IMG/VR virus record: IMGVR_UViG_3300044613_003466
Location: 1 to 53,303 of that record
Direction: 5' to 3' (one strand)
Source of the DNA: a virus
Lineage: Duplodnaviria; Caudoviricetes
Length of the DNA: 53,303 nt
Below, one piece after another: positions 3,994 to 53,303 of the stretch. Made by a program: the position numbers and the translations under genes. Position 1 is the first letter of the stretch. Each line of letters begins with the position of its first letter. Below the pieces are notes generated by a model. It did not search any database. It was given only the letters and a program-made list of their open reading frames with translations, and had not been told where the DNA came from.

Positions 3994-3995
3994 GA

Positions 3996-5696: not shown

Positions 5697-5699
5697 GGC

Positions 5700-6110
5700 T
5701 TAGGACGGCTGGGTTTGCAGCGAACGGCCGGAGCCGGTGACCAACAACTGGCCGGAGCCGGTGCGGAGCAGGCGGGAGACTAGGGGGATGGCTATGGCGG
5801 TGGTGCGGGCTAACCTCACCATGCTCCAGCTCAGCGCCCTAGGCTCGCTACCGGGGAGTGGCTCGGGCGCCCTTGTTGCCTTAAATGCCATGCCATCAAC
5901 TACAAGCGAATGGTTGTAATCAAGATGGCCAAATTCTGCGGTTCTGATCTTCAGCAGCCATGGGACAATTTCCACTCCATCATCAAAGACCAGCTCTTTG
6001 TTTTCCTCCAAAAAACCACGGCCAGAAACGGCGCCAGCAATTACGCTGACGCCGCCCATGAAATCCAGGGCCGCCCGATCTGCATCAGCCGATAGGCGGG
6101 CCCAACTCAT
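5700..6110 (-). CDS. Head-tail joining protein
   Basis: Position after capsid and DUF2190-like genes, small beta-rich protein. Confidence 0.6.
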   Translation of the reverse strand: MSWARLSADADRAALDFMGGVSVIAGAVSGRGFLEENKELVFDDGVEIVPWLLKIRTAEFGHLDYNHSLVVDGMAFKATRAPEPLPGSEPRALSWSMVRLARTTAIAIPLVSRLLRTGSGQLLVTGSGRSLQTQPS

Positions 6111-6457
6111 CAGAAGGCGCCGCTGAGGCGGACGTGAGCCAACGTAGCGCCAGAAGCGTAAGCAGCAGACTGAGATCCAATTGGCACAAACACACCGATA
6201 AGGGTGTTGCCGCTGGCAGATGCCGTCACGTTCTTGTTGGTGTCATTCCAGTACGCCTTGGCGTAAAGGCTGGCAGTGGCGCCAGTGGCCTTAGGGAGTT
6301 CGTGGACTCCTTCAAGCATGAAACTGCCAACCTCTCCACTGGCTAGAGCGGTTACGGCAACACCAAACAAAGCGCCAACCAACGCGCCGCCACCAGATGC
6401 GACAACATAAGGGGCAGCAATGGATAGGATTTTTCCTTCTTGAATAGGGCCGTGCAT
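6110..6457 (-). CDS. DUF2190-like capsid decoration/cement protein
   Basis: IQEG..L...APY.VASG...VG.LFGVA...EGV.ELPKA...YW motif, directly after the capsid gene. Confidence 0.8.
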   Translation of the reverse strand: MHGPIQEGKILSIAAPYVVASGGGALVGALFGVAVTALASGEVGSFMLEGVHELPKATGATASLYAKAYWNDTNKNVTASASGNTLIGVFVPIGSQSAAYASGATLAHVRLSGAF

Positions 6458-6513
6458 TGTTTTAATGGAATTGGGGAAAGTTAAACATTAAGGCTAAAGC
6501 GCAATGGTTAAAA

Positions 6514-18745: not shown

Positions 18746-18927
18746 TTGCCTTAAGTCCGGTTGCTAGGCCAGTTGGCAATGGCAATGGCGATGGCTATGG
18801 CAATGGCAATGGCTATGGCGATGGCTATGGCTATGGCTATGGCTATGGCAATGGCGATGGCTATGGCTATGGCTATGGCTATGGCGATGGCGATGGCACT
18901 ATTTCAACCGTAACCAGAAGGCGATGA
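18742..18927 (+). CDS. Gly-(Tyr/Asn/Asp) repeat peptide
   Basis: GTG at 18742; encodes (GN/GD/GY)x20. Confidence 0.55.
   Translation: MIALSPVARPVGNGNGDGYGNGNGYGDGYGYGYGYGNGDGYGYGYGYGDGDGTISTVTRRR
18775..18894 (+). repeat. Tandem hexamer GGC(A/G/T)AT x20
   Basis: Direct reading of the sequence. Confidence 0.95.
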
Positions 18928-30535: not shown

Positions 30536-31555
30536 ATGACCACTTTTGATTCCAGTCAAGCCGGCTTTGAGTTTGCTGTGAAGTTTGTCCGCGCTCAAAA
30601 CAAACGGGCCCTATTCGATAGTGCCACAGTCGCATTAGCCGAGCTGGCAAGGATTGACGCCCAGCCTCCAGCAACTGCAGCAGCTAAACCGACAGCAGAC
30701 CTAATCCCGCTGGCGTTTATTCCTGCCGGCAGTTTTCTGATGGGTTCGCCCGAGCACGAGCCTCACCGATTAAACACTGAAGGCCCCCAGCATGAGGTAA
30801 CACTGGCCGCCTTCTGGATGGCCCAGACACCGATTACTCAGGCACAGTGGCGCACGGTTGCAAGTTGGCCACGGGTCGAACGCGACCTAGGCCTTGATCC
30901 CTCGCGCTTTAAGGGCGATAATCGTCCAGTGGAGCAGGTGAGCTGGCACGATGCAATGGAATTTTGCTATCGCCTCAGCCAGGGCACCGGCAATAACTAC
31001 ACCCTGCCAAGCGAAGCCCAGTGGGAGTACGCCTGCCGAGCTGGCAGCACCACATCGTTTCATTTTGGGCCCACGATTAGCACGGAGGTGGCAAATTACG
31101 ACGGTAAATACATCTATGGCCAGGGCTCGAGGGGCATCTACCGCCAGCAGACCATCGATGTAGCCAGCTTCCCGCCCAATGCCTGGGACCTGCAGGACAT
31201 GCACGGCAATGTCTGGGAGTGGTGCCTTGATGGATGGCACGACAGCTACGGGGGGGCGCCAGTGGACGGTAGCGCCTGGATGGAGGGCGACAGCCTGGGA
31301 AAGCGCTGCGCGGCGGGTCGTGGATCAACAAACCCGCGAGCTGCCGCTCGGCCTCCCGCCTCAACAACCACCCGGACTCCCGCTACTCCAACATCGGTTT
31401 CCGCGTCTGTTGCCTCCCCTAAGCGCCGGCTGCTGCGCGGCGGGTCGTGGTCCGACGGCCCCGCCGACTGCCGCTCGGCCTTCCGCTTCGGCGTCCGCCC
31501 GGTCGCCCGCAGCAGCTTCATCGGTTTCCGCGTCTGTTGCCTCCCCCAGGGCTAA
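30536..31555 (+). CDS. FGE-sulfatase (C-type lectin fold) protein, DGR target-like
   Basis: IPAGSFLMGSP, PITQAQW, PVEQVSW, LPSEAQWEYACRAG, DMHGNVWEWC, RGGSW...CRSA...GFRV. Confidence 0.9.
   Translation: MTTFDSSQAGFEFAVKFVRAQNKRALFDSATVALAELARIDAQPPATAAAKPTADLIPLAFIPAGSFLMGSPEHEPHRLNTEGPQHEVTLAAFWMAQTPITQAQWRTVASWPRVERDLGLDPSRFKGDNRPVEQVSWHDAMEFCYRLSQGTGNNYTLPSEAQWEYACRAGSTTSFHFGPTISTEVANYDGKYIYGQGSRGIYRQQTIDVASFPPNAWDLQDMHGNVWEWCLDGWHDSYGGAPVDGSAWMEGDSLGKRCAAGRGSTNPRAAARPPASTTTRTPATPTSVSASVASPKRRLLRGGSWSDGPADCRSAFRFGVRPVARSSFIGFRVCCLPQG
31297..31303 (+). other. Candidate -1 frameshift heptamer G_GGA_AAG
   Basis: In-frame X XXY YYZ heptamer directly before VR1; GGAGG at 31282-31286, 10 nt upstream. 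Confidence 0.5.
31305..31419 (+). repeat. DGR-type variable repeat copy 1 (in the -1 frame, followed by TAA 31420-31422)
   Basis: 115-bp repeat of 31432-31546; encodes LRGGSWINKPASCRSASRLNNHPDSRYSNIGFRVCCLP. Confidence 0.9.
31432..31546 (+). repeat. DGR-type variable repeat copy 2 (in frame)
   Basis: Encodes LRGGSWSDGPADCRSAFRFGVRPVARSSFIGFRVCCLP; 24 mismatches to copy 1, 22 at codon positions 1-2. Confidence 0.9.
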
Positions 31556-31601
31556 TTCTTTACCCTTTCACCCTTTAATTCTTTGTCCTTGGCTGTTGAT
31601 T

Positions 31602-32162
31602 ATGAGTCCCCTTCCTCTTCCTTTCCAAACCTTAGACTGGCTCAACCATGCCGCCGATGCCGGTCAGCGTGACGCTCAGGTGCTACTGCACCTGATCGAC
31701 CGCGTCGATAAGCACGATCAAGATGTTGCAGTATTCGTGGACAGCTACTCCAAAACCATCGCCGCGCTCTGCCGCAGGCTGGATGCCCTGGAGCGTGGGG
31801 CCAACGATCTAACAGCAGCACCCGACCCTGTTGAGCCGGAAATCGAAATATGCGAAACATGCGACGGCGAAGGCACGATTGATGAACGCCTCGGCGGCAT
31901 TTCAACCTCAAACCCAGCCGCAACCTGCCCAGATTGTGATGGCGTTGGCAAGCCGCGCCGTTTTCATCGCCAACCACCAGCCGCACCAACGCCCCCGCCC
32001 ACTGAGCTGGTGGAAGTCGTCGGCAATGAACTCCCGTTACTGCCAGACGGGAGAGTTGACGAAGCTCGCACACGCGCCGCGATCAGGAAAATGGCGGACT
32101 GGCTCGACACGCAGGGGCACTATGCCAGCGCCAATGTTGTCCGCCGAGATCTTGACCGATGA
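31602..32162 (+). CDS. Hypothetical protein with DnaJ-type zinc finger
   Basis: CETCDGEG...CPDCDGVG. Confidence 0.65.
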   Translation: MSPLPLPFQTLDWLNHAADAGQRDAQVLLHLIDRVDKHDQDVAVFVDSYSKTIAALCRRLDALERGANDLTAAPDPVEPEIEICETCDGEGTIDERLGGISTSNPAATCPDCDGVGKPRRFHRQPPAAPTPPPTELVEVVGNELPLLPDGRVDEARTRAAIRKMADWLDTQGHYASANVVRRDLDR

Positions 32163-33733
32163 CCATGCCCGATCGAAACCAAATCACCCATCAACCCAGA
32201 ACCATGACCACTGATTCCGCTGACCGTGCATTGTCCCAACCCTTACCAGAAATTTCCGCAACCGGGGCGTTGACGGACATTCTGCGGGGGGCTCCAGCGC
32301 CTTCTGCACCCGCCGCCCCGCCATCCCCGGAGCCTAGGGAGGTGGCGGAGGTGGCCCAGTGGTTGCTCTCGATGCGCGAATTGGCCGGTGAGCACAACCC
32401 CGAGGAGCGGCGCCAATTCACCCGCGCCGCTACCCTGCTCCAGCGCTTGGCATTCCCTGCCTACTTGTTGGTGGTCGGTCGCCCGCCTGAGGGGGGTTTA
32501 GATCTGCTCAAGTCGCAGCCGGGCGATGTTCAGGTTTGCACTGCCGGGGTCAGCATTGAACCGCTGGGGGATGCGGCCCACCCCACATACCTAGACGCCA
32601 TTCGCCTAGCCCAGGGCTGCCACGATTACTCAGGCGGCCATAGCGGGACAGAGGGGGAGGCCTGGCATGGCGCCATTGATTTGGTTGTGGACGTGCTCAA
32701 GCGAGCGGCGGTTGGGCCCTGGGACGGCCAACTCAAGGCGGTGTATGGCGTTGGGATGGAGGCTCAGGCTGAGAAGGTGGAGGAGCTGGAGCCGGTGGCC
32801 GAGCTTGACGACCAACACCGCGAGGCGGTCCACCAAGCCGTAGCCGAGGCACTGGGCAGCGGAGCCTATGACTGCCTGCGCGTATGGGAGGCATGGGGCG
32901 TCGGGACCATGGGCCCAGATGATTTTGTGCCGGTGGCCGAAGACAGCGACCGCGTGGCTGAGATTGCAGATGCGGCCATTGAAGCGATCCGGGCGATCCC
33001 CCTGCCAGCGCCGGAGGTGGGGGAGACGGGGGAAGTAGCGGAGTTGGTGGCTTTACTGAAAATTGCGGGCCGATGGGCTACTTCTACCGGCGTGCATCTT
33101 GACCGCTTTGCCGCATTGTTCGATCAGCAGGAGGCCGAGCTGGCCGCCCTGCGGGCCGTGCCGGTGGCGGTGAGCGAGCGGCTGCGGGTTGTTAAAGCCG
33201 GCATCAGCGCCGGCTACAACCTGGGCCACCACCACACCGTTGAGGGCAGCTGGGGTGATCCTGATGATGTGGCCGACGACATTGCGCAAGAAACTCTCAA
33301 TGACATTGGCCTACCCCCAGCGCCTCAGTGCCTTATCGCCCGCATGGCTGCTGAGCTGGACCATTTACAGCCACTGCCAGCCTTCCCGCCCATCACATCC
33401 CACCCCCTCGCCATAGAGGCCCGCGCACTGCTGAGGGGCGGCCCTACCACTATTCCAGCGCCCCAGGCTGGGGAGGGGGCCGTGGCGGAGCCGGTGGCTG
33501 AATGCCCACATTGCGGCTATGAGGGCGAGATGGTGCCAGCGCCCCAGGCTGGGGATGTGGCGTTAGCGGGCGACCGGCGATCAGCGGAATCGCTGCAGCT
33601 AGCCCACGAAAGTTGCCGTTCACACGGCGACTGCCCAGATAGTGAAATCTGTTGGCTGGATATGCTGCCCTGTTCTCATTACGAAAACTGTGCCACCCCG
33701 CCAGCGCCCCAGGCTGGGGAGGTGGAGGCGTGA
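32159..33733 (+). CDS. Mosaic multi-module phage protein
   Basis: 524 aa punctuated by repeated PAPQAGE linkers. Confidence 0.6.
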   Translation: MTMPDRNQITHQPRTMTTDSADRALSQPLPEISATGALTDILRGAPAPSAPAAPPSPEPREVAEVAQWLLSMRELAGEHNPEERRQFTRAATLLQRLAFPAYLLVVGRPPEGGLDLLKSQPGDVQVCTAGVSIEPLGDAAHPTYLDAIRLAQGCHDYSGGHSGTEGEAWHGAIDLVVDVLKRAAVGPWDGQLKAVYGVGMEAQAEKVEELEPVAELDDQHREAVHQAVAEALGSGAYDCLRVWEAWGVGTMGPDDFVPVAEDSDRVAEIADAAIEAIRAIPLPAPEVGETGEVAELVALLKIAGRWATSTGVHLDRFAALFDQQEAELAALRAVPVAVSERLRVVKAGISAGYNLGHHHTVEGSWGDPDDVADDIAQETLNDIGLPPAPQCLIARMAAELDHLQPLPAFPPITSHPLAIEARALLRGGPTTIPAPQAGEGAVAEPVAECPHCGYEGEMVPAPQAGDVALAGDRRSAESLQLAHESCRSHGDCPDSEICWLDMLPCSHYENCATPPAPQAGEVEA

Positions 33734-33999
33734 TGTTAGTTCAAATTCCAACACTGGCCGACGCTTATTTTTCAATCGCAAAATGGGCTTATTGGCGTTA
33801 CGCAAGGGGAATGGTGGCCAGCAATAGAAAGCCGGTCGGCGTGCCAGGCAACCGGGACCCAGACAGCCCCTGCCCGGCATTTGAGCCCCGACCCCGCAAG
33901 CTGGAAGACTTTGCCGATTGCGAAACAGATGGACATTACCTGTGCTCTGAGTGCTGCCACAGAATGTCAGCGCCGGTATGGGGGGAGGTGGAGGCGTGA
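33733..33999 (+). CDS. Small Cys-rich protein
   Basis: RDPDSPC..F.P...DCETDGHYLCSEC; ends EVEA. Confidence 0.6.
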   Translation: MLVQIPTLADAYFSIAKWAYWRYARGMVASNRKPVGVPGNRDPDSPCPAFEPRPRKLEDFADCETDGHYLCSECCHRMSAPVWGEVEA

Positions 34000-34397
34000 G
34001 CTGCGATTGCGACTGTGAACAACCCGCCGTTTACCGACCGAACATCCAACGCGCCAGGAAAGCTCACGCCTGTTACGAGTGCTCTGGCCCGATTACCCCT
34101 GGCGATTCTCACGAGTACGTCTTCGGCGTTTGGGACGGTGAACCCGGATCGTTCAGAACATGCTGCCATTGCCTGGAGCTGCGTGCGTGGGTCACCGAAG
34201 CGGCCGACTGCTGGGCCTGCCACAGCGAGCTAGTCGAAATTGCCAGGGAAGAACTGCGCAACATGAGCGGTCCCAGGACTCCCGAAGTGCGTCAACAATG
34301 GTGGCAAGGCGCGCGGCTTTTCATCCAGGCCAGGCGACGGATGGAGACTTCCAGGGAGGCTCGGCGGCTGCGAAAGGCTGGGGAGGTGGAGGCGTGA
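33996..34397 (+). CDS. Zn-binding phage protein
   Basis: RARK.H.C.EC...I.PG..YE...G.WDG......C..C; ends EVEA. Confidence 0.7.
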   Translation: MSCDCDCEQPAVYRPNIQRARKAHACYECSGPITPGDSHEYVFGVWDGEPGSFRTCCHCLELRAWVTEAADCWACHSELVEIAREELRNMSGPRTPEVRQQWWQGARLFIQARRRMETSREARRLRKAGEVEA

Positions 34398-34663
34398 TCG
34401 TCCCAACTGCCGTTGCGGTTTTGCGCGAAATTGCGGCGATGCACTCCGAAGGTGTGGCGACGTTGCGGGCCAACACCCTCGCCGAGCGGCTTTGGCCTGA
34501 GGGTCGTCGCCAAAATTCCAAGGGCCAGGTGTTTCACTTGGGCGCCAGTGTGGCGGCGCAGTTGTTGCGAAGGTGCCCGGCTGTACGCGAAAAAGAGTCA
34601 AGGCTGTGGGAAATCCTGCCCCACAGGCTGCCAGCGCCCCAGGTCAAGGAGGTGGAGGCGTGA
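34394..34663 (+). CDS. Hypothetical protein
   Basis: GTG in the linker repeat; ends EVEA. Confidence 0.55.
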   Translation: MIVPTAVAVLREIAAMHSEGVATLRANTLAERLWPEGRRQNSKGQVFHLGASVAAQLLRRCPAVREKESRLWEILPHRLPAPQVKEVEA

Positions 34664-42372: not shown

Positions 42373-42851
42373 GTCGAAAAATCCAGCACGCAGGGCGTGC
42401 CTATCAGCTCCTGCGTGAGCACGATTGGCGGGACCGACACTGCAACCGGAGGCGGTGAGATAGTGCCGTTGATCGTGACGCCTGTGAGGGAGCCGCTGGC
42501 GGTGATGCTGCCGACCAGGACCGAACCAACCCGACTGAGCCCGCCCAGGACAACCTCGAACTGAGTCACCTCGATCAGCCATTGGTTAGCGTTCGCATCA
42601 ATCGCCAGGGCCAGAACAGCAGGGGAGTACGCGCACGTGATAGCGACCGATCCCGACACCAGGCCCGAATCAAACCCTGGGCAGTAGAACTCCTGGAACT
42701 CCCAGGACTGCAGCCCGTCGCCGTCGCCAGCGTCAAAGGAAGTGAAGGGGGCGTTGTTGATGTCGAGACGGTGCCACCTGGCCTTGGCGTTGCCGCTAGG
42801 GTCCATCCACTTCAGGGTCTGGGTGTAGACGTGGGGGCCGTAGTCGGGCAT
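42369..42851 (-). CDS. Tail tip/baseplate hub protein
   Basis: Between the tape measure and J-like genes, 4-bp overlap. Confidence 0.55.
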   Translation of the reverse strand: MPDYGPHVYTQTLKWMDPSGNAKARWHRLDINNAPFTSFDAGDGDGLQSWEFQEFYCPGFDSGLVSGSVAITCAYSPAVLALAIDANANQWLIEVTQFEVVLGGLSRVGSVLVGSITASGSLTGVTINGTISPPPVAVSVPPIVLTQELIGTPCVLDFST

Positions 42852-45682
42852 CAGACAATTCCCAGGGCCTGGCGCCCGTCATACGCCTGGATGTGATTCC
42901 AGAGCTGACCAATCCCATCGCTCACCATGGCCTCGGCATCCTCGCGCCGGATCCATTGCGAGCCGTCGGGTTGCTGCTGGACTGGGCCCGTTTGAATCTG
43001 GATCGTTGGGGCAAAGGTGCCGCCGCCTCTGGAGCCCCCGGCAGCGGCGCCGCTCGTGGCAGTGCGAGGGGCCGACCGATGCAGATCGATGACCTGCTCT
43101 TGAGGATGCAGCATGGCCATGAATCCGCCCCGGCCATCAAGCCCGCCAGACCGGGGGCCGTTGCCGGTGTAGCCGCCGCCGGCAAACTGGGGCACATTCA
43201 CGGGCTGGATCATCCCCAACTGCGGGCCCCGCACAGCAGCGCTCACCGAATTAGCCGCCTGGATGAGGCGGTTGATCTGCTCGATGAAGCTGTTGACCGC
43301 CCGCCCCGCCAGCGACAACGCCGAATTGATCACCCCCCGCACCGTACCAACAATTGATTCCCAGGCGTCGGTAATGGGCTGCACCAGGCCCACGGCATAG
43401 TCCCGCATCCCATCCATGGCCAGATTCCAGGTCTGCCCCAGGCGGGCAATAAGGCCATTCTCTGGGCCGATGATCGTGTCGAAGAATGCTGCAAAGTTGT
43501 CACTGATATTCGGCAGAATGTTGCTGACGTAACTGCTGATGTTGTCCATCATTATGTTCCAGCCGCCGCCGATCATTGCGACGAATCCGGTGGTGGGGTT
43601 GGCGATCAGATCCCAGAGCCCCCGGAAGGCATCGGCGATTTGGTCGCGGAATGAGAAAACGACAACAGCTGTGGCCACGGCTGCCGCGCCGATCAGGATC
43701 GGGGCAGAGACGAAACCGGCGACCAGGGCAGCCAGGCCGGTGGCTACTGATCCGAGGGTGGTGGCGATGCCCGCCAGACCTGCTGTTACCGCCGGCATGG
43801 CCCCAGCCCAGCCGGCCAGCGTGGCGCCTAGGCCAAAGCCGGCAATGGTCTTGAGAGCCATCCCAAGGCCAACCACAACGGGCAGAGCAATGACGGCTGC
43901 TGCTCCAATGGCGCCAATCCCAATTGCTATTTGCGTGAGCAGGGGATTGGTTTGGGCAAGGCCCGAAAGCGCTTGAACTACTGCAATAACACCAGGTACT
44001 AGCTGGTTAATTATAGGTACTATCAAATTGCCTATTTCAATCTGCAGCGCTTCTACGTTGTTTTTCGCTAGCTGCATTTGCGCCGCAGTGGTGCCCATTT
44101 GCACGCCAAGCTCTTTGGCCATCGATCCAGCGTAATTACCTGGACCGGCAACAGCGTCTAAAGACTTTGTCAGGTTATCTACGTTCTGAATTAACGCAGG
44201 CAAAGCCCTTGTCTCGTCACCAAAGAAATCAGAAATTATAGATGCCTGCATTTCTTTAGGCATTGCTTTGATGCGGCCAATAAAGTCTCTAATAGTAGGT
44301 TCGGCGCTCTCTTGCATTGCCCTGGCTAGCTTTAGGCCTGCATCTTTTCCGACAAAGCCTAAGGTCTGCAACGCGGCAACCTGCCGTTCAGTCATTGAAT
44401 TGCCCCGCGTCAGCGCCTTGATCATGTTGTTAAACGAGGTCGCGGCTACTTCCGTATCGGCGCCAGCCGAGATCATGGCCGCGCCAAATGCTACGGTTTT
44501 CTCTGCTGCCAGTCCCGCCTGTTGCCCAACGGCACCAGAGCGCAAGGCAAACTCCACCAGCTGGGAGGCCCTGGCTGCCGTCTGCTGGTCGAGGTAGTTC
44601 ATGGCATCAGCCAACTTCATAACTTCGGGCTGGGTCATGCCGAGGCTGTTGCGCAGCTTCGCTATTGACGTGCCGGCTTGATCAGCAGTCATCTCAAAGG
44701 CCACACTGAGGCCCGCCACGTCCTTGGCAAATGCTTTGACCTCGCTCCTAACGATACCTGAAGCACCGGCAGCAGCGTAAATTTCAGCAAACCCTTTGGC
44801 GGATACGGGCAGCTGCTTGGATAGACCGATGATCTCAGTTGATATTTCCTTGATTGCGGCCGGTGTCTCCAGGCCATCCATCACCTTGCGCACCCTGGAA
44901 AGACTGGTCTCAAAGTCCACGGCCGCTTTGGTGCTGGTCACCAGCGCAACGCCAAAGCCCGCCGCGCCAGCAGCAGCAGCCTGCCAGGATCGGCTGTTGA
45001 GCACAGCATCAAATCCCCGGCTGAAAGATGCGTCGATCCTGTTGAGGCCAGACAGGACCGACTGCAGGCGGGTGGCTTCTACGTGAACCACGCGCAACGA
45101 TTCAGCCTGAGCCTGGGCCGCCCTAAGCTGCGCATCTGCTACTTCTCTTTTTTTGGCAACAATGTTTGTGGTTATTACTAGCTCTTCTTGCGCAATTCGG
45201 TTAGCGGTCCTGGCGGCCTCGGTCTGCCGCAACATCTCTGGCGTGATCTTGCCGTAGGCGCCAGCAGTGGAAACCACCGACTGGGCTCGCTGCAGCTCCA
45301 GTTGGGTGGCCGTCTTTTTTGCCTGGGCCGTCTTCAGCTCGCCGGCTAACTGCTCTTCTGTCTGCTTGCGCCGCAGCTCCGCGCCTTTGACCTCCAGTGC
45401 CGCCATTTGGTTCTGAGCCGCCGCCCGATCCCTGTCGTTATCCAACAGCTTCATCCGCGACGCCAGCACCTGCTTATCGGCGTCCAGAATCTGGATCGAT
45501 GCTGCCGTGGCCGCAGCCATCTGACGTTCTATCCCGTCGGTGCTGAAGACGCGAGCATTCTCCTGGGCCGCCAGCTTGGCCGATTTCGACACATTGATCA
45601 GCGTCTCGGAGAGCTTCGTGACGCTGCCCATCCCTGCGACTTCGGCCCCAATCCTCAGGATCGCGTCAAAATTGACGGCCAT
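42851..45682 (-). CDS. Tail tape measure protein (TP901-like core)
   Basis: 943 aa, Ala-rich, A.DFET....VRKV...LADAMNYL...EVAATS, Trp-spaced repeats. Confidence 0.92.
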   Translation of the reverse strand: MAVNFDAILRIGAEVAGMGSVTKLSETLINVSKSAKLAAQENARVFSTDGIERQMAAATAASIQILDADKQVLASRMKLLDNDRDRAAAQNQMAALEVKGAELRRKQTEEQLAGELKTAQAKKTATQLELQRAQSVVSTAGAYGKITPEMLRQTEAARTANRIAQEELVITTNIVAKKREVADAQLRAAQAQAESLRVVHVEATRLQSVLSGLNRIDASFSRGFDAVLNSRSWQAAAAGAAGFGVALVTSTKAAVDFETSLSRVRKVMDGLETPAAIKEISTEIIGLSKQLPVSAKGFAEIYAAAGASGIVRSEVKAFAKDVAGLSVAFEMTADQAGTSIAKLRNSLGMTQPEVMKLADAMNYLDQQTAARASQLVEFALRSGAVGQQAGLAAEKTVAFGAAMISAGADTEVAATSFNNMIKALTRGNSMTERQVAALQTLGFVGKDAGLKLARAMQESAEPTIRDFIGRIKAMPKEMQASIISDFFGDETRALPALIQNVDNLTKSLDAVAGPGNYAGSMAKELGVQMGTTAAQMQLAKNNVEALQIEIGNLIVPIINQLVPGVIAVVQALSGLAQTNPLLTQIAIGIGAIGAAAVIALPVVVGLGMALKTIAGFGLGATLAGWAGAMPAVTAGLAGIATTLGSVATGLAALVAGFVSAPILIGAAAVATAVVVFSFRDQIADAFRGLWDLIANPTTGFVAMIGGGWNIMMDNISSYVSNILPNISDNFAAFFDTIIGPENGLIARLGQTWNLAMDGMRDYAVGLVQPITDAWESIVGTVRGVINSALSLAGRAVNSFIEQINRLIQAANSVSAAVRGPQLGMIQPVNVPQFAGGGYTGNGPRSGGLDGRGGFMAMLHPQEQVIDLHRSAPRTATSGAAAGGSRGGGTFAPTIQIQTGPVQQQPDGSQWIRREDAEAMVSDGIGQLWNHIQAYDGRQALGIV

Positions 45683-46044
45683 CAGGAACCCCTCAGCAGT
45701 GTCAACAGTTCCAACTCGATGACGCGCAGATCATCCAGCAGCGCAGCAACCGCACCACGGCCGCGCCGCAGGCCCGCCAGGGCGATCACCGCCGGATAGT
45801 TGAGCCCGGTGCGCACTCGGTACGGATGCCCCTCTGGGGTGTATTCAGTGGCCCACTGCCATTGGGTTTGGACCTGGCACCAGAGCAAGAAGGCCTCCCA
45901 GTTCTCGGGCCATATCCAGCAAGTGGGCTCAACAGGTTCTGGCCGATCAGAAGGCACAAAGCCGACAATCCCTAGCCGCTTTGCTTCCTGCTCCAGGCGA
46001 GCATTTTCCTGCGACTGGGTTTCAGCGCTGCCGCCGGTGGTCAT
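45682..46044 (-). CDS. DUF1799-like tail assembly chaperone, frameshift extension
   Basis: IWPENWEA...QTQW...TGLNY...DLRVIE; frame open back to the slippery site. Confidence 0.8.
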   Translation of the reverse strand: MTTGGSAETQSQENARLEQEAKRLGIVGFVPSDRPEPVEPTCWIWPENWEAFLLWCQVQTQWQWATEYTPEGHPYRVRTGLNYPAVIALAGLRRGRGAVAALLDDLRVIELELLTLLRGS

Positions 46045-46496
46045 TTGCCGATGCCATTCCCTCGCGATTTCCCTGAGGTTGGCGGCTTTCCCACTTCAGG
46101 ATCCGTTAGTGTGTTCCATGCGGAAACAAGCGAATTGGCTACCCCAGGAAATTCGATTACTTTTTTCTTGTTTTCAGCAGTGAAAGACATTGGCTCATCA
46201 TTATCGCCGCTAAGCATGTCTTCCCCCCAGCCAACAAGAATCTTGTCAGCGATTGGAAGAAGGCTTTTCCTTTCCAGTCCATCAGCAGCAGACGGCTCCA
46301 GACTGCCAAGCTCAATCGCTCTAATGATTGCAATGTAGGAGCGAAATTCTTCGCGCATATTTTCAATCTCGGTTTGCTGGCCTCTTTCAAAGATTGCCGT
46401 AAATGATCCATGCTCTTGCTTTCCGTCTCCAATCGGGTAGCTAAACTCCACCTTGCCTGTAAAGGTGGTGCCAGCTCTGTCAATGTTGAAAGCCAT
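46041..46496 (-). CDS. Tail assembly chaperone (gpG-like)
   Basis: Between tail tube and tape measure; LVGW...F..EN motif. Confidence 0.8.
   Translation of the reverse strand: MAFNIDRAGTTFTGKVEFSYPIGDGKQEHGSFTAIFERGQQTEIENMREEFRSYIAIIRAIELGSLEPSAADGLERKSLLPIADKILVGWGEDMLSGDNDEPMSFTAENKKKVIEFPGVANSLVSAWNTLTDPEVGKPPTSGKSRGNGIGK
46086..46092 (-). other. -1 programmed frameshift site G_GGA_AAG
   Basis: Same heptamer as lambda G/GT; the -1 frame reads GKAANLREIAREWHRQMTTGG into 45682-46044. Confidence 0.85.
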
Positions 46497-46540: not shown

Positions 46541-47479
46541 TCAAGTAAACGCCAGCGTGCCGGAGTCGCTGAGGCCTTCAGTGCGCCGCACCGTAAACGG
46601 AATGGTCAGCGCTGCGATGCCGGCATCATCGTCGGGTGCGGGTGCCCCCAGTTGAACCTTGGGCAGGTTGACGACCATGCGATTGCCCGCCACCGTGCCA
46701 TGGGTGAAGTTGAGCGCACCATTGGTAGAAGCTACTGCTATCGCGTAGAAATCCTTGCTGCTTAGCAGATCCGGCCTTTGCAGCTTAAGGGATCCCGTGA
46801 TTACACGATCCACGATCTGAAAATTAGGAGCGCAGCCCATTCGATCGTAAAATTCTACAGTGTTGTCACATTTTAACGAAAAATCAATAATGCAACAGCT
46901 ATAACCATGAAGGCTAAACGTTGGCATATTGGCAGAATTGCAAGCTACGGGAGCGGCCATAGCGCTATAAGTTGGCGTTAGGGATGCCGCATCGACCGGA
47001 GGCACGTAAATGGCAGGAACGTCAAACGAGAACAGCGGCACTTGGCCGACCTGCATCTTCAGCTCCCAGCTCTTGGTTCGGGCACCTATCCCTAGGTGCT
47101 TGTTGCCGTCCCAATCGTGGTACCAGGTCAGAGAATCAGCCCCGCCCGTCACGAATGAGTAGGTGTTGCTGGTGGTGGCAACCGTTGCCAGGTTCATCCC
47201 TGCAGCACGCAGGAAGATCCCGTAGGCGGGGGGAGTGCCGGCGGTGCCAGAGCCGACGGCCTCAATGTCAAAAGCAACGCCGTTTTTCAGCTCGGTCATC
47301 ACGTCCGACAATGCTTCACCGAATTGCCCGTCTAGACTGGGGCGAGCAATAGCAGTAGCGTCAAGGGCTGTCAGCTTCGGGTCCCTGACCCGGATCGCGT
47401 TCACCCCCGTCGGGGCTGCTGACGTTGCGTAGGTCGTCTCCAATGCTGCCATCAGAAACTGAGACTGGTTGCGGGCCAT
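46541..47479 (-). CDS. Major tail tube protein
   Basis: 312 aa, upstream of chaperones and tape measure. Confidence 0.8.
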   Translation of the reverse strand: MARNQSQFLMAALETTYATSAAPTGVNAIRVRDPKLTALDATAIARPSLDGQFGEALSDVMTELKNGVAFDIEAVGSGTAGTPPAYGIFLRAAGMNLATVATTSNTYSFVTGGADSLTWYHDWDGNKHLGIGARTKSWELKMQVGQVPLFSFDVPAIYVPPVDAASLTPTYSAMAAPVACNSANMPTFSLHGYSCCIIDFSLKCDNTVEFYDRMGCAPNFQIVDRVITGSLKLQRPDLLSSKDFYAIAVASTNGALNFTHGTVAGNRMVVNLPKVQLGAPAPDDDAGIAALTIPFTVRRTEGLSDSGTLAFT

Positions 47480-47577
47480 CGGCTTGGGGGGGTTGGGTTA
47501 CGGATTCGAGGATCCACTCGTTGTTGGTGAGCAGATAGGCGCCAGGGCCAGAAGGCAACGGCGGTGTAGGGGGCTGC

Positions 47578-48054
47578 TCAGGCGCTGCCTTCTTCATGCA
47601 ATGTGATGTTGGAGATGGCCGTGTAATAGGTCACATTGTAAATCATTCTGACTTCGCACGCTTGCAGGTTGGGCTCATGGATCCGACCACGGGATTCGAT
47701 GTCAATGCACAGCCCCCCCAGATCCCGCCTTCCGGCCATGATGCGTGCATGGACCGCCGCGCAAAACGGGCCCAGGATTCGCCAGTTTGGGGGCTCCCCT
47801 GGCGTTCGGGGCTTGGTGATGGTGATGACGACCGGAAGGGTTGAGACCACTTGGCACGCGCTCAGGACCCTGTCAAGGGCCTCGCCTTCCTGATCCAGTT
47901 TGATCACCACGCCATCGGGCTCAGATGCCACCCTGGCTGCATCGAGAAACAAGGCCCCAACCCCAGCAATATCGCTCCGGTCCTCGGTGGCCGCTGCGCC
48001 CTGCAGCAGTGCCGCCAGGGCATCCATGATCTGGGCGTCGATGGGGAGGGTCAT
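47578..48054 (-). CDS. Putative tail terminator/completion protein
   Basis: Homologue of 889-1365. Confidence 0.55.
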   Translation of the reverse strand: MTLPIDAQIMDALAALLQGAAATEDRSDIAGVGALFLDAARVASEPDGVVIKLDQEGEALDRVLSACQVVSTLPVVITITKPRTPGEPPNWRILGPFCAAVHARIMAGRRDLGGLCIDIESRGRIHEPNLQACEVRMIYNVTYYTAISNITLHEEGSA

Positions 48055-48275
48055 GGGTTGGGGGTGCGGTCCTGCTGGGGATCGGCATGGGCGTCATGTC
48101 GCCGCCGGCCGCGCAGCAGGTTGCCAACCGCAGGGATGGCCCCCTGGATAGGGCTTGGCACCAGCACACCTAGGGCCCAGTTCCAGCGGCTCTCGCAGGC
48201 CTGGAACGGGCTCGGGACCCTGGCCTCACAGACCCCGATGTAGCCAGTGATCAGCAGGGCGGTAAACCAGTTCAT
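48051..48275 (-). CDS. Small membrane protein (holin-like candidate)
   Basis: Hydrophobic segments; shares only the C-terminal QQDRTP.P with 1362-1595. Confidence 0.45.
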   Translation of the reverse strand: MNWFTALLITGYIGVCEARVPSPFQACESRWNWALGVLVPSPIQGAIPAVGNLLRGRRRHDAHADPQQDRTPNP

Positions 48276-48766
48276 ACTTGTTCCTTCGGCATGGTTATAG
48301 GTGGCAGGCTGGCGGTTTTGGGGTGAGGCATTTTATCCCAAATGGCTATCGCCTGCATTATCAGCCAGCCAGCCAGCAACGCCCCGCCACTACAAAAAGC
48401 CATTTTGATAAATATGCCGCTCATGTTATCCTGTAAACCCTTAACGGCGGTTAACATGTCCTTGTTACTCTGTTGACAGGCGTCTACATCTTTCTGAAGC
48501 GAAAGAATTTGTAAGTCATGCCCTTTTAATCCTTGAGCGTGTTCTTTTTTGGAGTCCTCATGCTCTCTTTTGATTTCTAATATTGCAGACTCCGTCCGTT
48601 TTTGGCTTTCGCGTACGCTTGCTAAATCGTGTTTTATAGACGTAACTTCCTTGAGTTCTTTCTTGACTTCTGAAAATTCATTACAAGCCCGATTTAACAT
48701 ATCAAGCAAACCGCTAATCGCGCTTAGCGGAATGTATCCGTCAGGACTGGGGTGCTCTTCGCTCAT
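48272..48766 (-). CDS. Coiled-coil protein with C-terminal TM helix
   Basis: Homologue of 1592-2077 (GL.DMLNRAC.E...EVTSI..DL). Confidence 0.65.
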   Translation of the reverse strand: MSEEHPSPDGYIPLSAISGLLDMLNRACNEFSEVKKELKEVTSIKHDLASVRESQKRTESAILEIKREHEDSKKEHAQGLKGHDLQILSLQKDVDACQQSNKDMLTAVKGLQDNMSGIFIKMAFCSGGALLAGWLIMQAIAIWDKMPHPKTASLPPITMPKEQV

Positions 48767-48885
48767 GGCTTCAGCCTCTCAGCCAGCCAGCGGCGCATAG
48801 CGGGATCCGCAGTCAGCACCCACCACGCCGGCAGGAACAGGGCCAGGTGCAGCGCCGTCATGGCAACGACATCCCATAAATCCAT
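48763..48885 (-). CDS. 40-aa membrane peptide (not in ORF track)
   Basis: MDLWDVVAMTALHLALFLPAWWVLTADPAMRRWLAERLKP; homologue of 2070-2198. Confidence 0.6.
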   Translation of the reverse strand: MDLWDVVAMTALHLALFLPAWWVLTADPAMRRWLAERLKP

Positions 48886-48887
48886 GG

Positions 48888-49400
48888 CTAGGCGCTAGGC
48901 GGAGTCATGGCGATTATAGCCTCATTCAGGGCAGTTATGAATGCCGTTGGTAGATTGCACCGCACGGCCAAGTCTAGAAATTCCTGAATTAAAGGCCCTT
49001 TCTCTTGCTCGGGCTGTACCGAAACGATTAGAACTAAGCCCTGTAAATATTCGGCAAAATCTCCTTTGTCTTGAAACCGATCCAGGCGAGACAGCGAAAA
49101 CGTCACCGCAGCCCAGGCGGCGTCGTCCTGGGAGTCTCGGGCGCGTGCCATTGCGGCCAAGTACCCGTTCTCGGTCAGGATCGCCTGCCGGAATCCTGGC
49201 CAGTCCGTGTTACTAGCCCCGTTCAGCCCAAAGTAACTCTCAGCAGCTTCATAAGAATCAAAGTAGCGCCATCCTTCGACTGGATAAGTGTAGCTGGCGT
49301 GATCAGCTGCAATTAAAGTAAAGTTGGGAGCATGTACTGAGGTAGGAGCGTACCTCAGCTCGTTGGCTGTAAATTTGTAGAATCCCGCTGTGTTGGTCAT
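48888..49400 (-). CDS. Fibre-associated protein
   Basis: T.GFYK...L.YAP..V...Y.YPV.GW..F motif. Confidence 0.55.
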   Translation of the reverse strand: MTNTAGFYKFTANELRYAPTSVHAPNFTLIAADHASYTYPVEGWRYFDSYEAAESYFGLNGASNTDWPGFRQAILTENGYLAAMARARDSQDDAAWAAVTFSLSRLDRFQDKGDFAEYLQGLVLIVSVQPEQEKGPLIQEFLDLAVRCNLPTAFITALNEAIIAMTPPSA

Positions 49401-50797
49401 GCTGTCACCGTCCAGCCCTTGGCTGTAGCAATGGACGCACTATAGCCCGCTTGATTGATTCCGTAATTGCCCGTCACAGTGATGGTTTGCCCTGTCACGG
49501 TCGGCAGTCCTGTGAAAACTTCATTTAACGCTACTGCCGAAAGTTTGCGGCTTGATATATTAAACGAAAACCGCATACCAGAAATAGCGGCACGGCTTAG
49601 CGATACGCAGCCATCTACAAAATTACTGGCATTGCTAGAGATGCTTACACCAGACATATTATGAACTGGCAGCACCTGAAGCAAAGCGCAACCGCCATAC
49701 ATGCTGCTAAGATTTGTAATTTGCGCAGTTGTCGGGAGGTCGGGCAGCTCTCTTGCCGACTGGCAATTCAGATACATTGAAGACGTGTTTAACAATGCAG
49801 CAGTTGAAACCGGAAGTGTCGGGAAATCTTCGCCGGACTGACAGCCTGAGTATTTCAACGCAGTTGTAGTCAGTGATGCAGCCGAACCCGTATAAGGGGG
49901 AAAGCGCTTTAATCCAACACAGTTCTGATATTTACTGGCCATTGTTGTAACGCCAGATATTGAGCTTGGAAACGGGGCAACGCTAGCTAAAGCAATAAAA
50001 CCATTATACATATTTGCCATAGTTGACAAAGCGCCGCAAGCAATAACGTTTACACGCTGCGCAAGTCGGTGGCCCACAGCAGTTCCCCCTAGCACAAAAC
50101 TGCTGCCAGTAACATTAGGAACGGAAATAGCAAGCTCAAGCCAGCCAGTAGTATAACTTTGAAGATTAGTTGTAGGATTTTTTGCCTGAAAATTTACAAC
50201 TGTTAAATTCTGGCCAGCTTGAGGGGTGATAGTGACAACCGCCACTTTATACGGCAACAATGTGGCGCTACCGTCATTGGTCAAAGCAATAGGGCTACCC
50301 CCTAATGTAGCTGATATCTGAAATGAATTAGCGGATGGATTGACAACATAATAGCGGCGATTTTTTACAACCCCAGTCGTTGAAACTATATTGTAAAATT
50401 GTGTTATAGCTCCAGCGGGAAATCCATGGCCAGTAAAGTTTATCGCGTTGGTGGCTGCTGTGAAAGTTACCGGCTTGTCAGTTCCCGCCAATGCCGCATT
50501 GTTAAAATCAAATTCATAGTTTGCCTGCGTATTACTTGCAAAATTTGTAGTGGTGCCATCGCCAAAGTTTATCGTATATGCGCCTTGTGCATTAAATGCA
50601 AAAAAGTTCCCGCCAGTTCCCGTGCCATCACCGGGCCAGACAGCATAAATGCCGACAATTTTTTGCTCACTGGCCAAAACCGTTGGCATGGTCGGCCAGG
50701 CGATCGGCCGCACCCAGTCGTCTACGGGTACGGGAGTAGTTCCGCCGCCACTGCCAACATCAACGAAAACGCCAGCTTCCTTTACTTTTAGCCCCAT
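49397..50797 (-). CDS. Receptor-binding-like protein with BspA/DUF285-type repeats
   Basis: WVRP..WP N-terminus; about five ~25-aa repeats of the type ITNLSSMYGGC..L..LP. Confidence 0.65.
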   Translation of the reverse strand: MGLKVKEAGVFVDVGSGGGTTPVPVDDWVRPIAWPTMPTVLASEQKIVGIYAVWPGDGTGTGGNFFAFNAQGAYTINFGDGTTTNFASNTQANYEFDFNNAALAGTDKPVTFTAATNAINFTGHGFPAGAITQFYNIVSTTGVVKNRRYYVVNPSANSFQISATLGGSPIALTNDGSATLLPYKVAVVTITPQAGQNLTVVNFQAKNPTTNLQSYTTGWLELAISVPNVTGSSFVLGGTAVGHRLAQRVNVIACGALSTMANMYNGFIALASVAPFPSSISGVTTMASKYQNCVGLKRFPPYTGSAASLTTTALKYSGCQSGEDFPTLPVSTAALLNTSSMYLNCQSARELPDLPTTAQITNLSSMYGGCALLQVLPVHNMSGVSISSNASNFVDGCVSLSRAAISGMRFSFNISSRKLSAVALNEVFTGLPTVTGQTITVTGNYGINQAGYSASIATAKGWTVTA

Positions 50798-52344
50798 CAG
50801 ATGTCACCTATCCAGAGATCGCCGTTCACAGCATTAACAGGCTCTACTGTCCCAATCCAGTAAACCGCCGTCACTCCTGACGGTCGCGCCGTACTGGCGT
50901 TAGATCCGTGGGCGACAGCGGTCACAGCGTCAGCGGCAGCAGCAGCGCCCAGGTTAGCCCTCGCGGTTGTTGTGTTGACCAGGTCGCTCAGGTTGTTGGC
51001 TTTGACCGCCAGCCCCGATAGGTCCTGGTCTCCTGTGTTGGTGCCGCTGCTGGTGCCGCTGAAGGTGCCCGATTGGGTGGCCAGGGTGCCCAGACCTGAA
51101 ACCTGGCCAGCCGTGATCGTCGGAATGTCGCCAGCCACCAGGGACCGAAACGCTGGGGCTGCTGCTGTACCGGTCGCGGGACCGGCTAACACCAGGTTTG
51201 CAGACTGGGCCGCCAGCGTGGCGGTCAGGGTGCCGGACGTGGTGACGGGCGACCCGGTAACAGTGAACAGGGCCGGCAAGCTCAGCCCAACACTGGTAAC
51301 AGTGCCGCCATCACCGCCACCATGGCCGCCCGTGACGCTGATTGTTTGGTTGGGCCAGGTGCCGGCAATGCTCACGTGTGTGCCTGCCACCAGCCCAGGG
51401 GTGGCCGTTCCCGTGCCGCCATGGGCGATCGACAGCAGCCCAGACACCCCGGTCGCCAGGGGGAGCCCAGTGGCGTTCAACAGGCCCAGGCTGGAGGGAG
51501 TGCCCCCTGCCCCGTCGAACAGCACGGGGGCCCCCGCAGCGCCGGCGTTCACCGCCAGGGCGTTGGCTATCCCGGTCCCTAGGCCGCTGATGGTGCTCAG
51601 GGGCTGCGTGCCGCTGTGGTTGCCTCGGGCCAGGTAATAGGCCGCGCTGTTTGCCGCCAGGGCCGTCAGGTTTGCGGAGAGAGGCTGATAGCTGCTGGCT
51701 GCGTTGGCTGTGGTCAGGTAGGCAGCAAGCGTTGAGGTCAGCCCTGGAGGCTGCACTGCCGACGCGGCCAGAACCCCTTGGGCAGAGGTAGCAAAATCTC
51801 CTGCTGCCGCCAGCGCCGCAGAGCCGAGCTCTAGACTTGCGCGCCCAGTGGCGGCATTGAGCCCGGTGGCGCCGCCGGTCCACTGCCCGCGCATTGAGTA
51901 GGCCGTATCCCAGTTGGCCTGACTCGCGTTGCTCGGCAGGCTGAAACCGGTCGGCAAGGCCAGTGTGAGCGTGACACCGCCGCCCGTGTTGGTAGTGCTG
52001 GTACTCCAACCACTAGGAACCGACAGCGCAACCGACTGCACAGGGGCAGCTGCCGCCGCTAACGCCACCACCGCCGACAGTGGCGCATCCCCGGTATCGA
52101 TCGGCCCCGCCGTGCCGGTGCCAGTGCCCGCACCAGTGGCTACAAAATAAGCACCAACTGTATTTGATTCGGCGCCAATTGCTGTGAAAGAGGTATTGCC
52201 TACGCTGATAATTTGATAAGCTTGCCCAACAACAAACGCCCCGGCCGTTACCGCCGCGCCGATGCGGTCCAACACCAGGCGGTCGCTGCCCTGGACGCTG
52301 CCCAGGTCCGGCAGTTGGGAAATCGTGATCGGTGTTTGGGTCAT
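50797..52344 (-). CDS. Fibre protein (B)
   Basis: Mosaic homologue of 3996-5696; ends P.NA.NGDLWI. Confidence 0.75.
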   Translation of the reverse strand: MTQTPITISQLPDLGSVQGSDRLVLDRIGAAVTAGAFVVGQAYQIISVGNTSFTAIGAESNTVGAYFVATGAGTGTGTAGPIDTGDAPLSAVVALAAAAAPVQSVALSVPSGWSTSTTNTGGGVTLTLALPTGFSLPSNASQANWDTAYSMRGQWTGGATGLNAATGRASLELGSAALAAAGDFATSAQGVLAASAVQPPGLTSTLAAYLTTANAASSYQPLSANLTALAANSAAYYLARGNHSGTQPLSTISGLGTGIANALAVNAGAAGAPVLFDGAGGTPSSLGLLNATGLPLATGVSGLLSIAHGGTGTATPGLVAGTHVSIAGTWPNQTISVTGGHGGGDGGTVTSVGLSLPALFTVTGSPVTTSGTLTATLAAQSANLVLAGPATGTAAAPAFRSLVAGDIPTITAGQVSGLGTLATQSGTFSGTSSGTNTGDQDLSGLAVKANNLSDLVNTTTARANLGAAAAADAVTAVAHGSNASTARPSGVTAVYWIGTVEPVNAVNGDLWIGDI

Positions 52345-52347
52345 GGC

Positions 52348-52731
52348 TTAGGACGGCTGGGTTTGCAGCGAACGGCCGGAGCCGGTAACCAGCAACTGGC
52401 CGGGGCCGGTGCGGAGGAGGCGGGAGACTAAGGGGATGGCTATGGCTGTGGTGCGGGCTAATGGAATCTTGCAAAACGCGCCATCATTGAAGCGCTGGGG
52501 CTGCATCTCAACTTTGTAGGTTTGGCCGTCTACCGTAATTGGGCTCCCATAATTTAAGCTGCCAAATAAATCAGTTTTTGCAGTCAGCAAATAATCAATT
52601 ACCGTAGCGCCTTCATCAAAAATAATTTCACTGTTCAAGTCAAGATAGCCAAGGCCTGTTACAGCCCCGGCTATCACGGGAACAGCGCCCATGTCCAAAT
52701 CCAGAAAATCATCTAGATCGTCAAACGCCAT
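52348..52731 (-). CDS. Head-tail joining protein
   Basis: DDLDDFL...GSL.YG..ITVDG..Y.V...DG.F; C-terminus shared with 5700-6110. Confidence 0.7.
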   Translation of the reverse strand: MAFDDLDDFLDLDMGAVPVIAGAVTGLGYLDLNSEIIFDEGATVIDYLLTAKTDLFGSLNYGSPITVDGQTYKVEMQPQRFNDGAFCKIPLARTTAIAIPLVSRLLRTGPGQLLVTGSGRSLQTQPS

Positions 52732-52907
52732 CAGTCGCCAGGCTCTGCAGCCTTAGCCTTCTTGCCGCCTTCGGGCGTGGCACCGATAACCCCAAAGGCC
52801 ACCAGGGTGGCGGCTTCTTCGGCGGTTAGCCGGGGGATCTCGGCGCCATCTTCATAGCGGGCCCCGTCGTGGTCAACGGGGCCATTGAGAACGGTGTAGG
52901 AAGGCAT
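52731..52907 (-). CDS. Small post-capsid protein, 58 aa (not in ORF track)
   Basis: MPSYTVLNGPVDHDGARYEDGAEIPRLTAEEAATLVAFGVI..., a small-protein type often found after capsid genes. Confidence 0.65.
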   Translation of the reverse strand: MPSYTVLNGPVDHDGARYEDGAEIPRLTAEEAATLVAFGVIGATPEGGKKAKAAEPGD

Positions 52908-52909
52908 GA

Positions 52910-53303
52910 TCAGGCGACAACGTTTTGGAAAAAGTAGCCAACATCAGAAGCGCAAATGAGTTCATTCACGCTTTCGCCCACCCGCACCCGTTGAGCGCCG
53001 CGCAGGCCGGTCTTAGGCTCTGGGATACTGCCGCTCACCCGATTGCCGTATTCAGCGGTAAAGCCAAATGTGATGGCATTACCACGAATAGAGGCCAATG
53101 GGTTGTTGTGGAACAAAGCCATGTGCTTGCCCCACACCCTGACCAGCGTTGGAGTTTGACCGGGCTTAGCAGTGTTGATCCAGCTTTCGCCAATCAGCAA
53201 CCGATCCAGCTCAAGCAATTCGGCAACGGCTTGCACAGATGCCGGAGCGCCATTTGCGTTGCTGGTGCCAGTGTTTCCAGTGCTGGACGGGGCCAGGGCC
53301 GCT
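52910..53303 (-). CDS. Major capsid protein C-terminus (different type from prophage A), 5' end outside window
   Basis: A.LLEL..L.IGE.W.NTAKPGQ...L.RVWG...TFG.TA...G..G...VRVGE...GYFFQNVVA. Confidence 0.75.
   Translation of the reverse strand, partial: AALAPSSTGNTGTSNANGAPASVQAVAELLELDRLLIGESWINTAKPGQTPTLVRVWGKHMALFHNNPLASIRGNAITFGFTAEYGNRVSGSIPEPKTGLRGAQRVRVGESVNELICASDVGYFFQNVVA

Follow-up and report, generated by a model that had tools for sequence, protein, structure and literature searches.

A tandem pair of hypervariable modules in two reading frames behind a candidate -1 slip site, in a phage gene with the features of a remote target of a Cyanobium diversity-generating retroelement

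In phage lambda, the heptamer G_GGA_AAG is the -1 slip site of the G/GT tail assembly chaperone. In Escherichia coli dnaX, the -1 site A_AAA_AAG works with an upstream Shine-Dalgarno (SD)-like element and a downstream hairpin, and the shifted frame stops almost immediately to give a shorter protein. Apart from the targets of diversity-generating retroelements (DGRs), no protein-hypermutation system of bacteria or phages is known to us. Such targets are usually described with one variable region (VR) per domain and with the template repeat (TR) and reverse transcriptase (RT) in cis. Here we analyse a phage locus that combines these known kinds, DGR targets and -1 recoding. The window, by which we mean the whole stretch of DNA analysed, is a complete IMG/VR virus record (IMGVR_UViG_3300044613_003466; 53,303 bases, linear, CheckV 80%), and the gene in question is the open reading frame (ORF) 30536-31555 on its + strand, where the features described below also lie unless stated otherwise. 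Behind an in-frame G_GGA_AAG, this gene carries two VR copies, VR1 and VR2, in different frames, and we consider it likely, if unproven, with a probability of about 0.5, that a programmed -1 shift yields a 295-aa isoform ending in VR1 beside a 339-aa isoform ending in VR2.

The likeness to lambda G/GT lies in the identical, in-phase heptamer and in two C-terminally different proteins that would arise from one start. Here, on the other hand, the shift would swap a hypervariable ligand-binding module in a lectin fold, with no chaperone extension, and most relatives carry G_GGG_GAG. With dnaX the locus shares a three-part layout, in which the heptamer follows an SD-like word at a distance of about 10 nt and precedes a hairpin at a distance of about 6 nt, and one relative (locus L059) has A_AAA_AAG itself; in contrast to dnaX, the shifted frame encodes a complete functional module, and the stimulators are candidates.

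The closest described DGRs are those with FGE-sulfatase/CLec targets and remote targets, such as Treponema TvpA and cyanobacterial DGRs (PMC5758913, PMC7517822). The traits shared with our locus are a C-terminal VR in an FGE-type lectin fold, an AAC-rich TR, adenine-specific differences, a conserved 3' end beside the VR and one TR serving several targets, while the differences are that our target resides on a phage without RT or TR (0/11 viral records) and holds two tandem VRs in different frames inside one domain. A multi-VR target has been described in Marichromatium purpuratum, where one ORF contains three tandem FGE-sulfatase paralogs (PMC3521204, PMC5758913); it resembles our gene in having more than one VR in a single ORF, all apparently diversified, but whole domains are repeated in frame there, whereas the repetition in our gene is limited to the 120-130 nt VR module and carries a one-base offset. 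Due to this offset, only one VR copy can be read correctly in each ribosome pass. Compared with usual DGRs, the locus departs in a VR module duplicated one base out of register, in the conservation of this arrangement in about 45 contigs, and in phages that would depend on the TR and RT of their host.

The zero-frame ORF runs from the ATG at 30536 to the stop at 31553-31555, encoding 339 aa. Its protein matches the FGE-sulfatase family PF03781 (E = 1.9e-48, residues 61-333), with PvdO (5hha), the Treponema variable protein TvpA (2y3c) and formylglycine-generating enzymes as the nearest solved chains in the PDB, and is predicted to be an FGE-sulfatase/C-type-lectin protein with its VR at the C-terminus. 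For ribosomes that do not slip, VR1 would be out of frame and translated into a Ser/Thr/Pro/Ala linker free of stops (RCAAGRGSTNPRAAARPPASTTTRTPATPTSVSASVASPK), and they would end in copy 2, which reads LLRGGSW...GFRVCCLPQG* in the zero frame. Copy 1 reads as a VR in the -1 frame only (ALRGGSWINKPASCRSASRLNNHPDSRYSNIGFRVCCLP*, stop TAA at 31420-31422). This frame is open for 39 codons from the slip site to the TAA and contains a complete VR module with family-typical spacing, so that a -1 slip would give a protein of 256 + 39 = 295 aa, ending GKALRGGSWINKP...GFRVCCLP*. Both outcomes, 339 aa ending in VR2 without a slip and 295 aa after it, had been proposed by an earlier sequence-only reading of this DNA, and our translations agree with them.

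The -1 product would also look normal at its seam, with the junction K-A-L-RGGSW against the single-VR homologue consensus [RK]-x-L-RGGSW. Between the segments aligned to query residues 251 and 300, PvdO (5hha) has 6 residues, the -1 product about 8 and the zero-frame product 48; the predicted -1 product is the one that gives the normal spacing of the fold. An AlphaFold2 model of the zero-frame protein, built on a 16-row alignment, was uninformative (mean predicted local distance difference test score, pLDDT, 55.5; residues 224-324 below 50).

The two copies follow the heptamer directly. Each is 115 nt long, they are spaced at 127 nt with an identity of 79%, and their constant 18- and 20-mers have only two occurrences in the window against 0-0.15 expected. 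VR1 spans 31303-31422 (ALRGGSW...GFRVCCLP in its natural, -1, frame) and VR2 spans 31430-31555; junction 2 (31414-31435) translates as SPKRRLL in the zero frame and contains the stop that ends VR1 in the -1 frame. As TR reference we used that of L147, a Cyanobium contig described below, which is another record and not the genome of this phage's actual host. Relative to it, VR1 of the window keeps 16/27 adenine sites and differs at 5/66 non-adenine sites, and VR2 keeps 5/27 and differs at 3/66. Over 43 tandem loci, the means are 12.2/27 adenines kept and 3.3/66 other sites changed for VR1, and 11.3/27 and 2.0/66 for VR2. Both copies display this adenine-mutagenesis signature and, judged by it, are DGR variable regions.

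The two copies differ in their ends. VR2 and the host VRs finish with CTCCCCCAGG(A/G)C followed by about 50 nt of a common 3' flank, and in the window this end (CTCCCCCAGG...), which resembles an initiation of mutagenic homing (IMH) site, and the conserved flank shared with host DGR targets span 31541-31600 (compared with 2898-2955 of L147). The TR ends in CTCCCCCAGCAC with a different flank, and VR1 retains only CTCCCC. The difference between VR end and TR end is of the expected IMH/IMH* type, with the IMH itself putative. VR1 also lacks the CGGCTGC found after AAGCGC in copy 2, as the sequence-only reading had pointed out. VR1 was considered as the TR of VR2 and rejected: 9 of the approximately 24 differences between them fall at non-adenine bases of VR1, and both copies vary in relatives.

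The template and the enzyme are found in the host and not in the phage. No RVT_1 domain is present in any of 11 viral records (the window and 10 related ones, of which one is 100% complete and two have terminal repeats), no third repeat copy that would represent a TR was found in the window, and an RT motif scan of 82 loci returned none, while the same scan did find RTs in L147 and L178. In a genome-collection scan, the constant 18-mer at the repeat end matches many contigs of metagenome-assembled genomes (MAGs) of Cyanobium, Synechococcus and other Cyanobacteriota, and some of the MAG copies of the repeat are adenine-rich templates. L147, a Cyanobium MAG contig, carries a full DGR cassette at 2787-4653, consisting of a 948-aa target with its terminal VR (~2787-2897), a small ORF, an RT ORF (3439-4509 from the first ATG, scanned as 3367-4506; RVT_1 60.8 bits, motifs IGNLTSQ...YVDD) and a TR (4543-4653) with 27 adenines, mostly in AAC codons. 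Since the phage repeats match this TR, and TR and RT reside on Cyanobium contigs and are absent from the phage records, the phage gene appears to behave as a remote target of a host-encoded DGR, served at most in trans. We infer that the host element homes into phage DNA in trans. Single VRs with the phage gene's 3' flank are found on many Cyanobium MAG contigs, and in a 146-kb Cyanobium MAG contig (L101, ~4650-6211) two VRs flank a truncated TR-type end.

The arrangement of the two frames is conserved. In IMG/VR, a scan guided by the protein yielded 78 loci, and gapped DNA patterns retrieved 14 viral (IMG/VR) and 37 metagenome contigs with copies 121-136 nt apart, some contigs being in both collections. 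These reduce to 47 non-redundant entries, in 43 of which the N-terminal frame is readable; the loci are related, and their counts overstate the number of independent events. VR1 is in the -1 frame and VR2 in the zero frame in 43/43, and the spacings (121, 124, 127, 130 and 136) are 1 mod 3 in 47/47, despite varying linker lengths. We therefore regard the locus as a conserved dual-frame tandem VR cassette. Among the genome-collection loci listed, at least 120, no pair of the constant 18-mer was seen within 400 nt. As variations on the theme, L014 (6633-6966) carries three copies in tandem, of which the first two are identical and which lie in frames -1, 0 and +1 in turn, and in L016 and L059 the zero frame runs on past VR2, adding about 30 residues in L059 and giving an ORF of 557 aa in total in L016.

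We also considered that the tandem copy or its offset could be spurious, an assembly artefact of a hypervariable region. Assemblers do break at VRs, and the contigs of runs X1 and X2 end at VR borders; moreover, the near-duplicate ends of the record indicate that it is not a clean unit genome. However, the same architecture recurs in the 14 IMG/VR and 37 metagenome contigs with many different VRs and junctions. Runs X1-X3 were consulted as Logan contigs, which drop rare variants; X1, which may be the source sample, has contigs that bridge 31198-31418 and 31389-31545 with zero differences from the window. In the RNA run X24, contig cover is absent over 31238-31773, and elsewhere consists of relatives at 85-95%. 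We regard an artefact as hardly credible. The sequence-only reading had offered, as an alternative to slippage, a 7-bp deletion that toggles the frame, and had left room for an assembly error; neither the error nor the toggle, as a recent or reversible event, survives as the cause of the offset, because the frames are fixed in 43/43 loci and the X1 contigs are free of differences, and no junction indel at 31290-31310 is seen in the X1 and X2 contigs.

The two copies evolve at different rates. In seven close pairs of loci (upstream flanks at least 95% identical), VR1 is identical in 4/7 and VR2 in 0/7. The window and L005 have an identical VR1 (114 nt) and a VR2 that is only 83% identical, and in run X2, with flanks identical to the window, VR2-like contigs (contigs, not reads) differ at 15 and 18 places. 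These comparisons argue for a faster turnover of VR2 than of VR1, which fits the complete IMH-like end and flank of VR2, as VR1 keeps only part of that end. In addition, the two copies sometimes exchange sequence: four of the 43 loci (L014, L222, L235 and L008) share 16-27 of the 27 adenine-site bases between their own VR1 and VR2, beyond the 99th percentile of unrelated pairs (15; null mean 9.0).

Exchange of this kind raises the prospect of a frame switch at the DNA level, by junction indels such as the 7-bp change or by VR1/VR2 recombination or gene conversion across population genomes. Apart from these four loci, it could draw on the third copy of L014, which alters the frames, and on L023 (~2940-3110), where a single VR stands in the -1 frame behind CTG GGA AAG and the zero frame passes through this VR without a stop, joining the gene that follows. 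L023 looks as if recombination between VR1 and VR2 had collapsed the tandem, and its lectin domain could be made only with a -1 shift; a scan of viral contigs for further single VRs in the -1 frame behind GGGAAAG returned only this contig besides the known tandem loci. However, only one frame arrangement exists in 43/43 loci, with VR1 in frame 0 in none, collapse by homologous recombination yields the -1 frame and not frame 0, and the junction indel is missing from the X1 and X2 contigs, with the caveat that contigs drop rare variants. A switch in the DNA is therefore improbable.

We now turn to the proposed slip site. The zero frame reads CTG GGA AAG at 31295-31303, which places G_GGA_AAG (31297-31303) in X_XXY_YYZ phase directly before VR1, and GGAGG, an SD-like word, lies 10 nt upstream at 31282-31286; in both respects the sequence-only reading holds. 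It had also paired GCGGGT with ACCCGC downstream: the two words are there (31313-31318 and 31332-31337), but the minimum-energy fold takes a neighbouring register. This predicted hairpin (31305-31352) has its main stem between 31310-31316 and 31341-47, starting 6 nt after the heptamer, and reaches -32.4 kcal/mol with z = -3.1, a stability equalled by 1/200 shuffles. GGAGG is conserved across the 36 unique junctions. The SD word and the hairpin are thus present in the sequence, yet partly as by-products of the coding sequence and VR constants, and are taken here as candidate stimulators.

As a word, GGGAAAG is not enriched in the window (6 matches versus 8.85 expected). One further match, which the sequence-only reading had listed at 46086-46092, is found on the minus strand and is informative by its setting. 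It lies in phase, as G_GGA_AAG, near the end of a 151-aa ORF (46041-46496, minus strand). Its -1 frame continues for 136 codons without a stop, as far as 45682, and the tape-measure gene (42851-45682) comes immediately after. PHROGs label both ORFs 'tape measure'. The segment 45682-46496 (minus strand) is a predicted tail assembly chaperone frameshift of the lambda G/GT type and, because its layout is the classic tail-chaperone arrangement, slippage on this heptamer is presumably something the phage already depends on in its host. In five records of the GGGGGAG class, which are fragments, a search for tail-chaperone slip sites gave no match to P0002.

A first piece of comparative evidence that the frame of VR1 is translated comes from its stop codon. 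In 38/38 junction types, which differ in sequence and length, a VR1-frame stop falls 0-2 codons after GFRVCC, switching between TGA and TAA, whereas the third frame, as a control, has a stop there in 1/38. In the zero frame, the T of this stop falls at the third position of a codon for Pro, Ser, Ala, Asp or Phe. T-ending codons are an unfavoured synonymous choice: in 18 window genes they account for 21% of the codons for Pro, 23% of the four-fold ones for Ser and 17% of those for Ala. The zero-frame residue drawn from the next two bases is itself variable (K, E, D or N).

The slip site shows a second pattern. Across the 36 unique junctions, the nonamer is CTG GGA AAG in 11, CTG GGG GAG in 24 and GCA AAA AAG in 1, so that heptamer bases 5 and 6 are AA (12) or GG (24) and never mixed, although GGA and GGG are synonymous and both K and E occur. 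With equal bases at positions 5 and 6, a tRNA that slips by -1 in the A site still pairs at the first codon position. The Gly codon of the site is never GGC or GGT, although GGC makes up 51% of the Gly codons in the window genes. On a quick tree with SH-aLRT (Shimodaira-Hasegawa-like approximate likelihood ratio test) support, the AA and GG states are interspersed, with the window, L005, L236 and L023 as AA forms beside GG relatives. L059, the most divergent tandem member, has A_AAA_AAG in the same place and phase, and L022, whose single VR is in frame and which branches within the tandem clade, reads AGA AAG at the site and has no heptamer; L009, which carries an internal GFRV, is a tandem locus. 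Finally, in the long-spacer relatives the -1-frame residue before LLRGGSW is Arg, encoded by CGC, CGA, CGG, CGT, AGG or AGA, with A, D, G or V in the zero frame, a pattern that may owe something to copying from junction 2.

A simpler account needs no recoding. VR1 would be left over from a tandem duplication of 127 nt (1 mod 3), a relic, and the 339-aa protein would be the sole product, with VR1 tolerated as a hypervariable Ser/Thr/Pro/Ala loop, and the tandem would be kept since recombination leaves the remaining VR out of frame. Several observations lean this way and weigh against a programmed shift. The site in 24/36 unique junctions, CTG GGG GAG, is not X_XXY_YYZ and thus non-canonical, a weak slip on a G run at best; these junctions are also 9-15 nt longer, so that the VR hairpin lies beyond the reach of a canonical stimulator, and the lineage of the window and L005 is nested among them in the tree. 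The signals around the heptamer also have other sources. GGAGG stems from a conserved W-x-E-G/D and AAG from a basic residue of the family, both of them also in single-VR relatives (GGAGG is encoded by W-x-E-G/D in L022, for instance), and the core stem of the hairpin consists of constant VR bases, and hence is present in every VR of the family.

The open frame and its conservation are similarly ambiguous. The AAC codons of the TR put C at the second codon positions of the zero frame of VR1, making this frame stop-proof, and since stops cannot arise its openness needs no selection. Conservation of the frame relation does not by itself prove recoding either, because selection on the zero frame alone would maintain it: the link to VR2 would be broken by any indel whose length is not divisible by three. 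Inter-repeat recombination, in turn, leaves a dead single VR in the -1 frame, so that the tandem is possibly passively trapped, and L023 resembles the predicted dead product. VR1 also shows more damage to its scaffold: across 27 pairs of the GGGGGAG class, there are 8 scaffold-damaging non-synonymous changes in VR1 versus 2 in VR2, for example CRSA to CHLA (L008, L222) and RGGSW to HGGSW (L218, L252), and this damage comes with the slower turnover already described. What the relic account leaves unexplained is the VR1-frame stop in 38/38 junctions with its unfavoured T, the coupling of bases 5 and 6 together with the exclusion of GGC and GGT, the A_AAA_AAG of L059 and the Arg before LLRGGSW, which six codons provide in the -1 frame. 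We consider the relic account quite possible, short of preferring it. The -1 shift first suggested by the sequence-only reading thus gains from the frame architecture, the VR1 stop, the heptamer covariation, L059 and the chaperone site, and loses from the G_GGG_GAG of most relatives.

The preferred mechanism, with a -1 shift, would operate as follows. The gene 30536-31555 would be a phage-borne DGR target whose TR and RT are supplied by the Cyanobium host. Ribosomes remaining in frame would read VR1 as a linker, and VR2 would complete the lectin fold (339 aa). Others, in a proportion that we infer like the shift itself, would slip -1 on G_GGA_AAG, aided by the hairpin and perhaps by GGAGG; they would translate VR1 in the frame natural to it and terminate at the TAA 31420-31422 (295 aa). 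One gene would consequently give two independently diversified binding tips, of which VR2 turns over faster, probably by direct homing, and VR1 more slowly, partly via exchange with VR2.

A more elaborate version of this mechanism is tentative, and on the whole we are inclined to doubt it. Cyanobium phages without an RT would use the host DGR in trans, and the -1 shift would set the ratio between isoforms with a fresh VR2 and an 'archived' VR1, the latter occasionally refreshed by VR2-to-VR1 exchange, with the slip site toggling between a strong GGGAAAG with a short spacer and a weak GGGGGAG with a long one.

If the -1 shift is true, one gene displays two independently evolved binding sites, joining recoding and targeted hypermutation. 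In the literature searched, neither a tandem VR that is selected by frameshifting or read out of frame nor DGR targets of Cyanobium phages came to light; supplements may list such cases. Even without frameshifting, phage-borne remote DGR targets that match a host TR, and a stop-proof hypervariable linker read out of frame, are apparently unreported in the same sources.

Regarding its genomic setting, the record is a freshwater cyanobacterial phage, presumably from a lineage of Cyanobium phages. The window contains siphovirus-type genes (large terminase, tape-measure protein, minor tail proteins) and a block of replication and nucleotide-metabolism genes (PDDEXK/DUF3799 protein, single-stranded DNA-binding protein SSB, dCTP deaminase, thymidylate kinase, C5 methylase), within which the ORF 30536-31555 sits. 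Over the whole window, an Rfam scan gave 0 matches and a tRNA gene search found 0. The ends of the record, 1-6600 and 46690-53303, are near-duplicates, with blocks 74-98% identical at an offset of 46.4-46.7 kb; the record therefore exceeds one genome unit and may represent two joined strain variants, a concatemer or a tandem of related phages.

Downstream of the target, 32320-34663 presents a 34-nt motif (...CCAGGCTGGGGAGGTGGAGGCGTGA) that recurs at the ends of successive ORFs, each ending ...GEVEA*. The stop of each ORF shares bases with a GTG and a GGAGG word, and the whole resembles a series of coupling junctions within a small gene family. The gene immediately following the target, 31602-32162, is separate and encodes a DnaJ-type zinc-finger-like protein. 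Its N-terminus (MSPLPLPFQTLDWLNHAADAGQRD) resembles the beginning (MSTLPLPPQTLAWLNHAADAGQRD) of the FGE-domain ORF of L022 (5507-6433), and gene order or fusion differs among relatives. Elsewhere in the window, at 18750-18921, imperfect hexamer repeats (TGGCTA / TGGCAA / TGGCGA) follow each other in a run, with nine copies in a 58-nt register.

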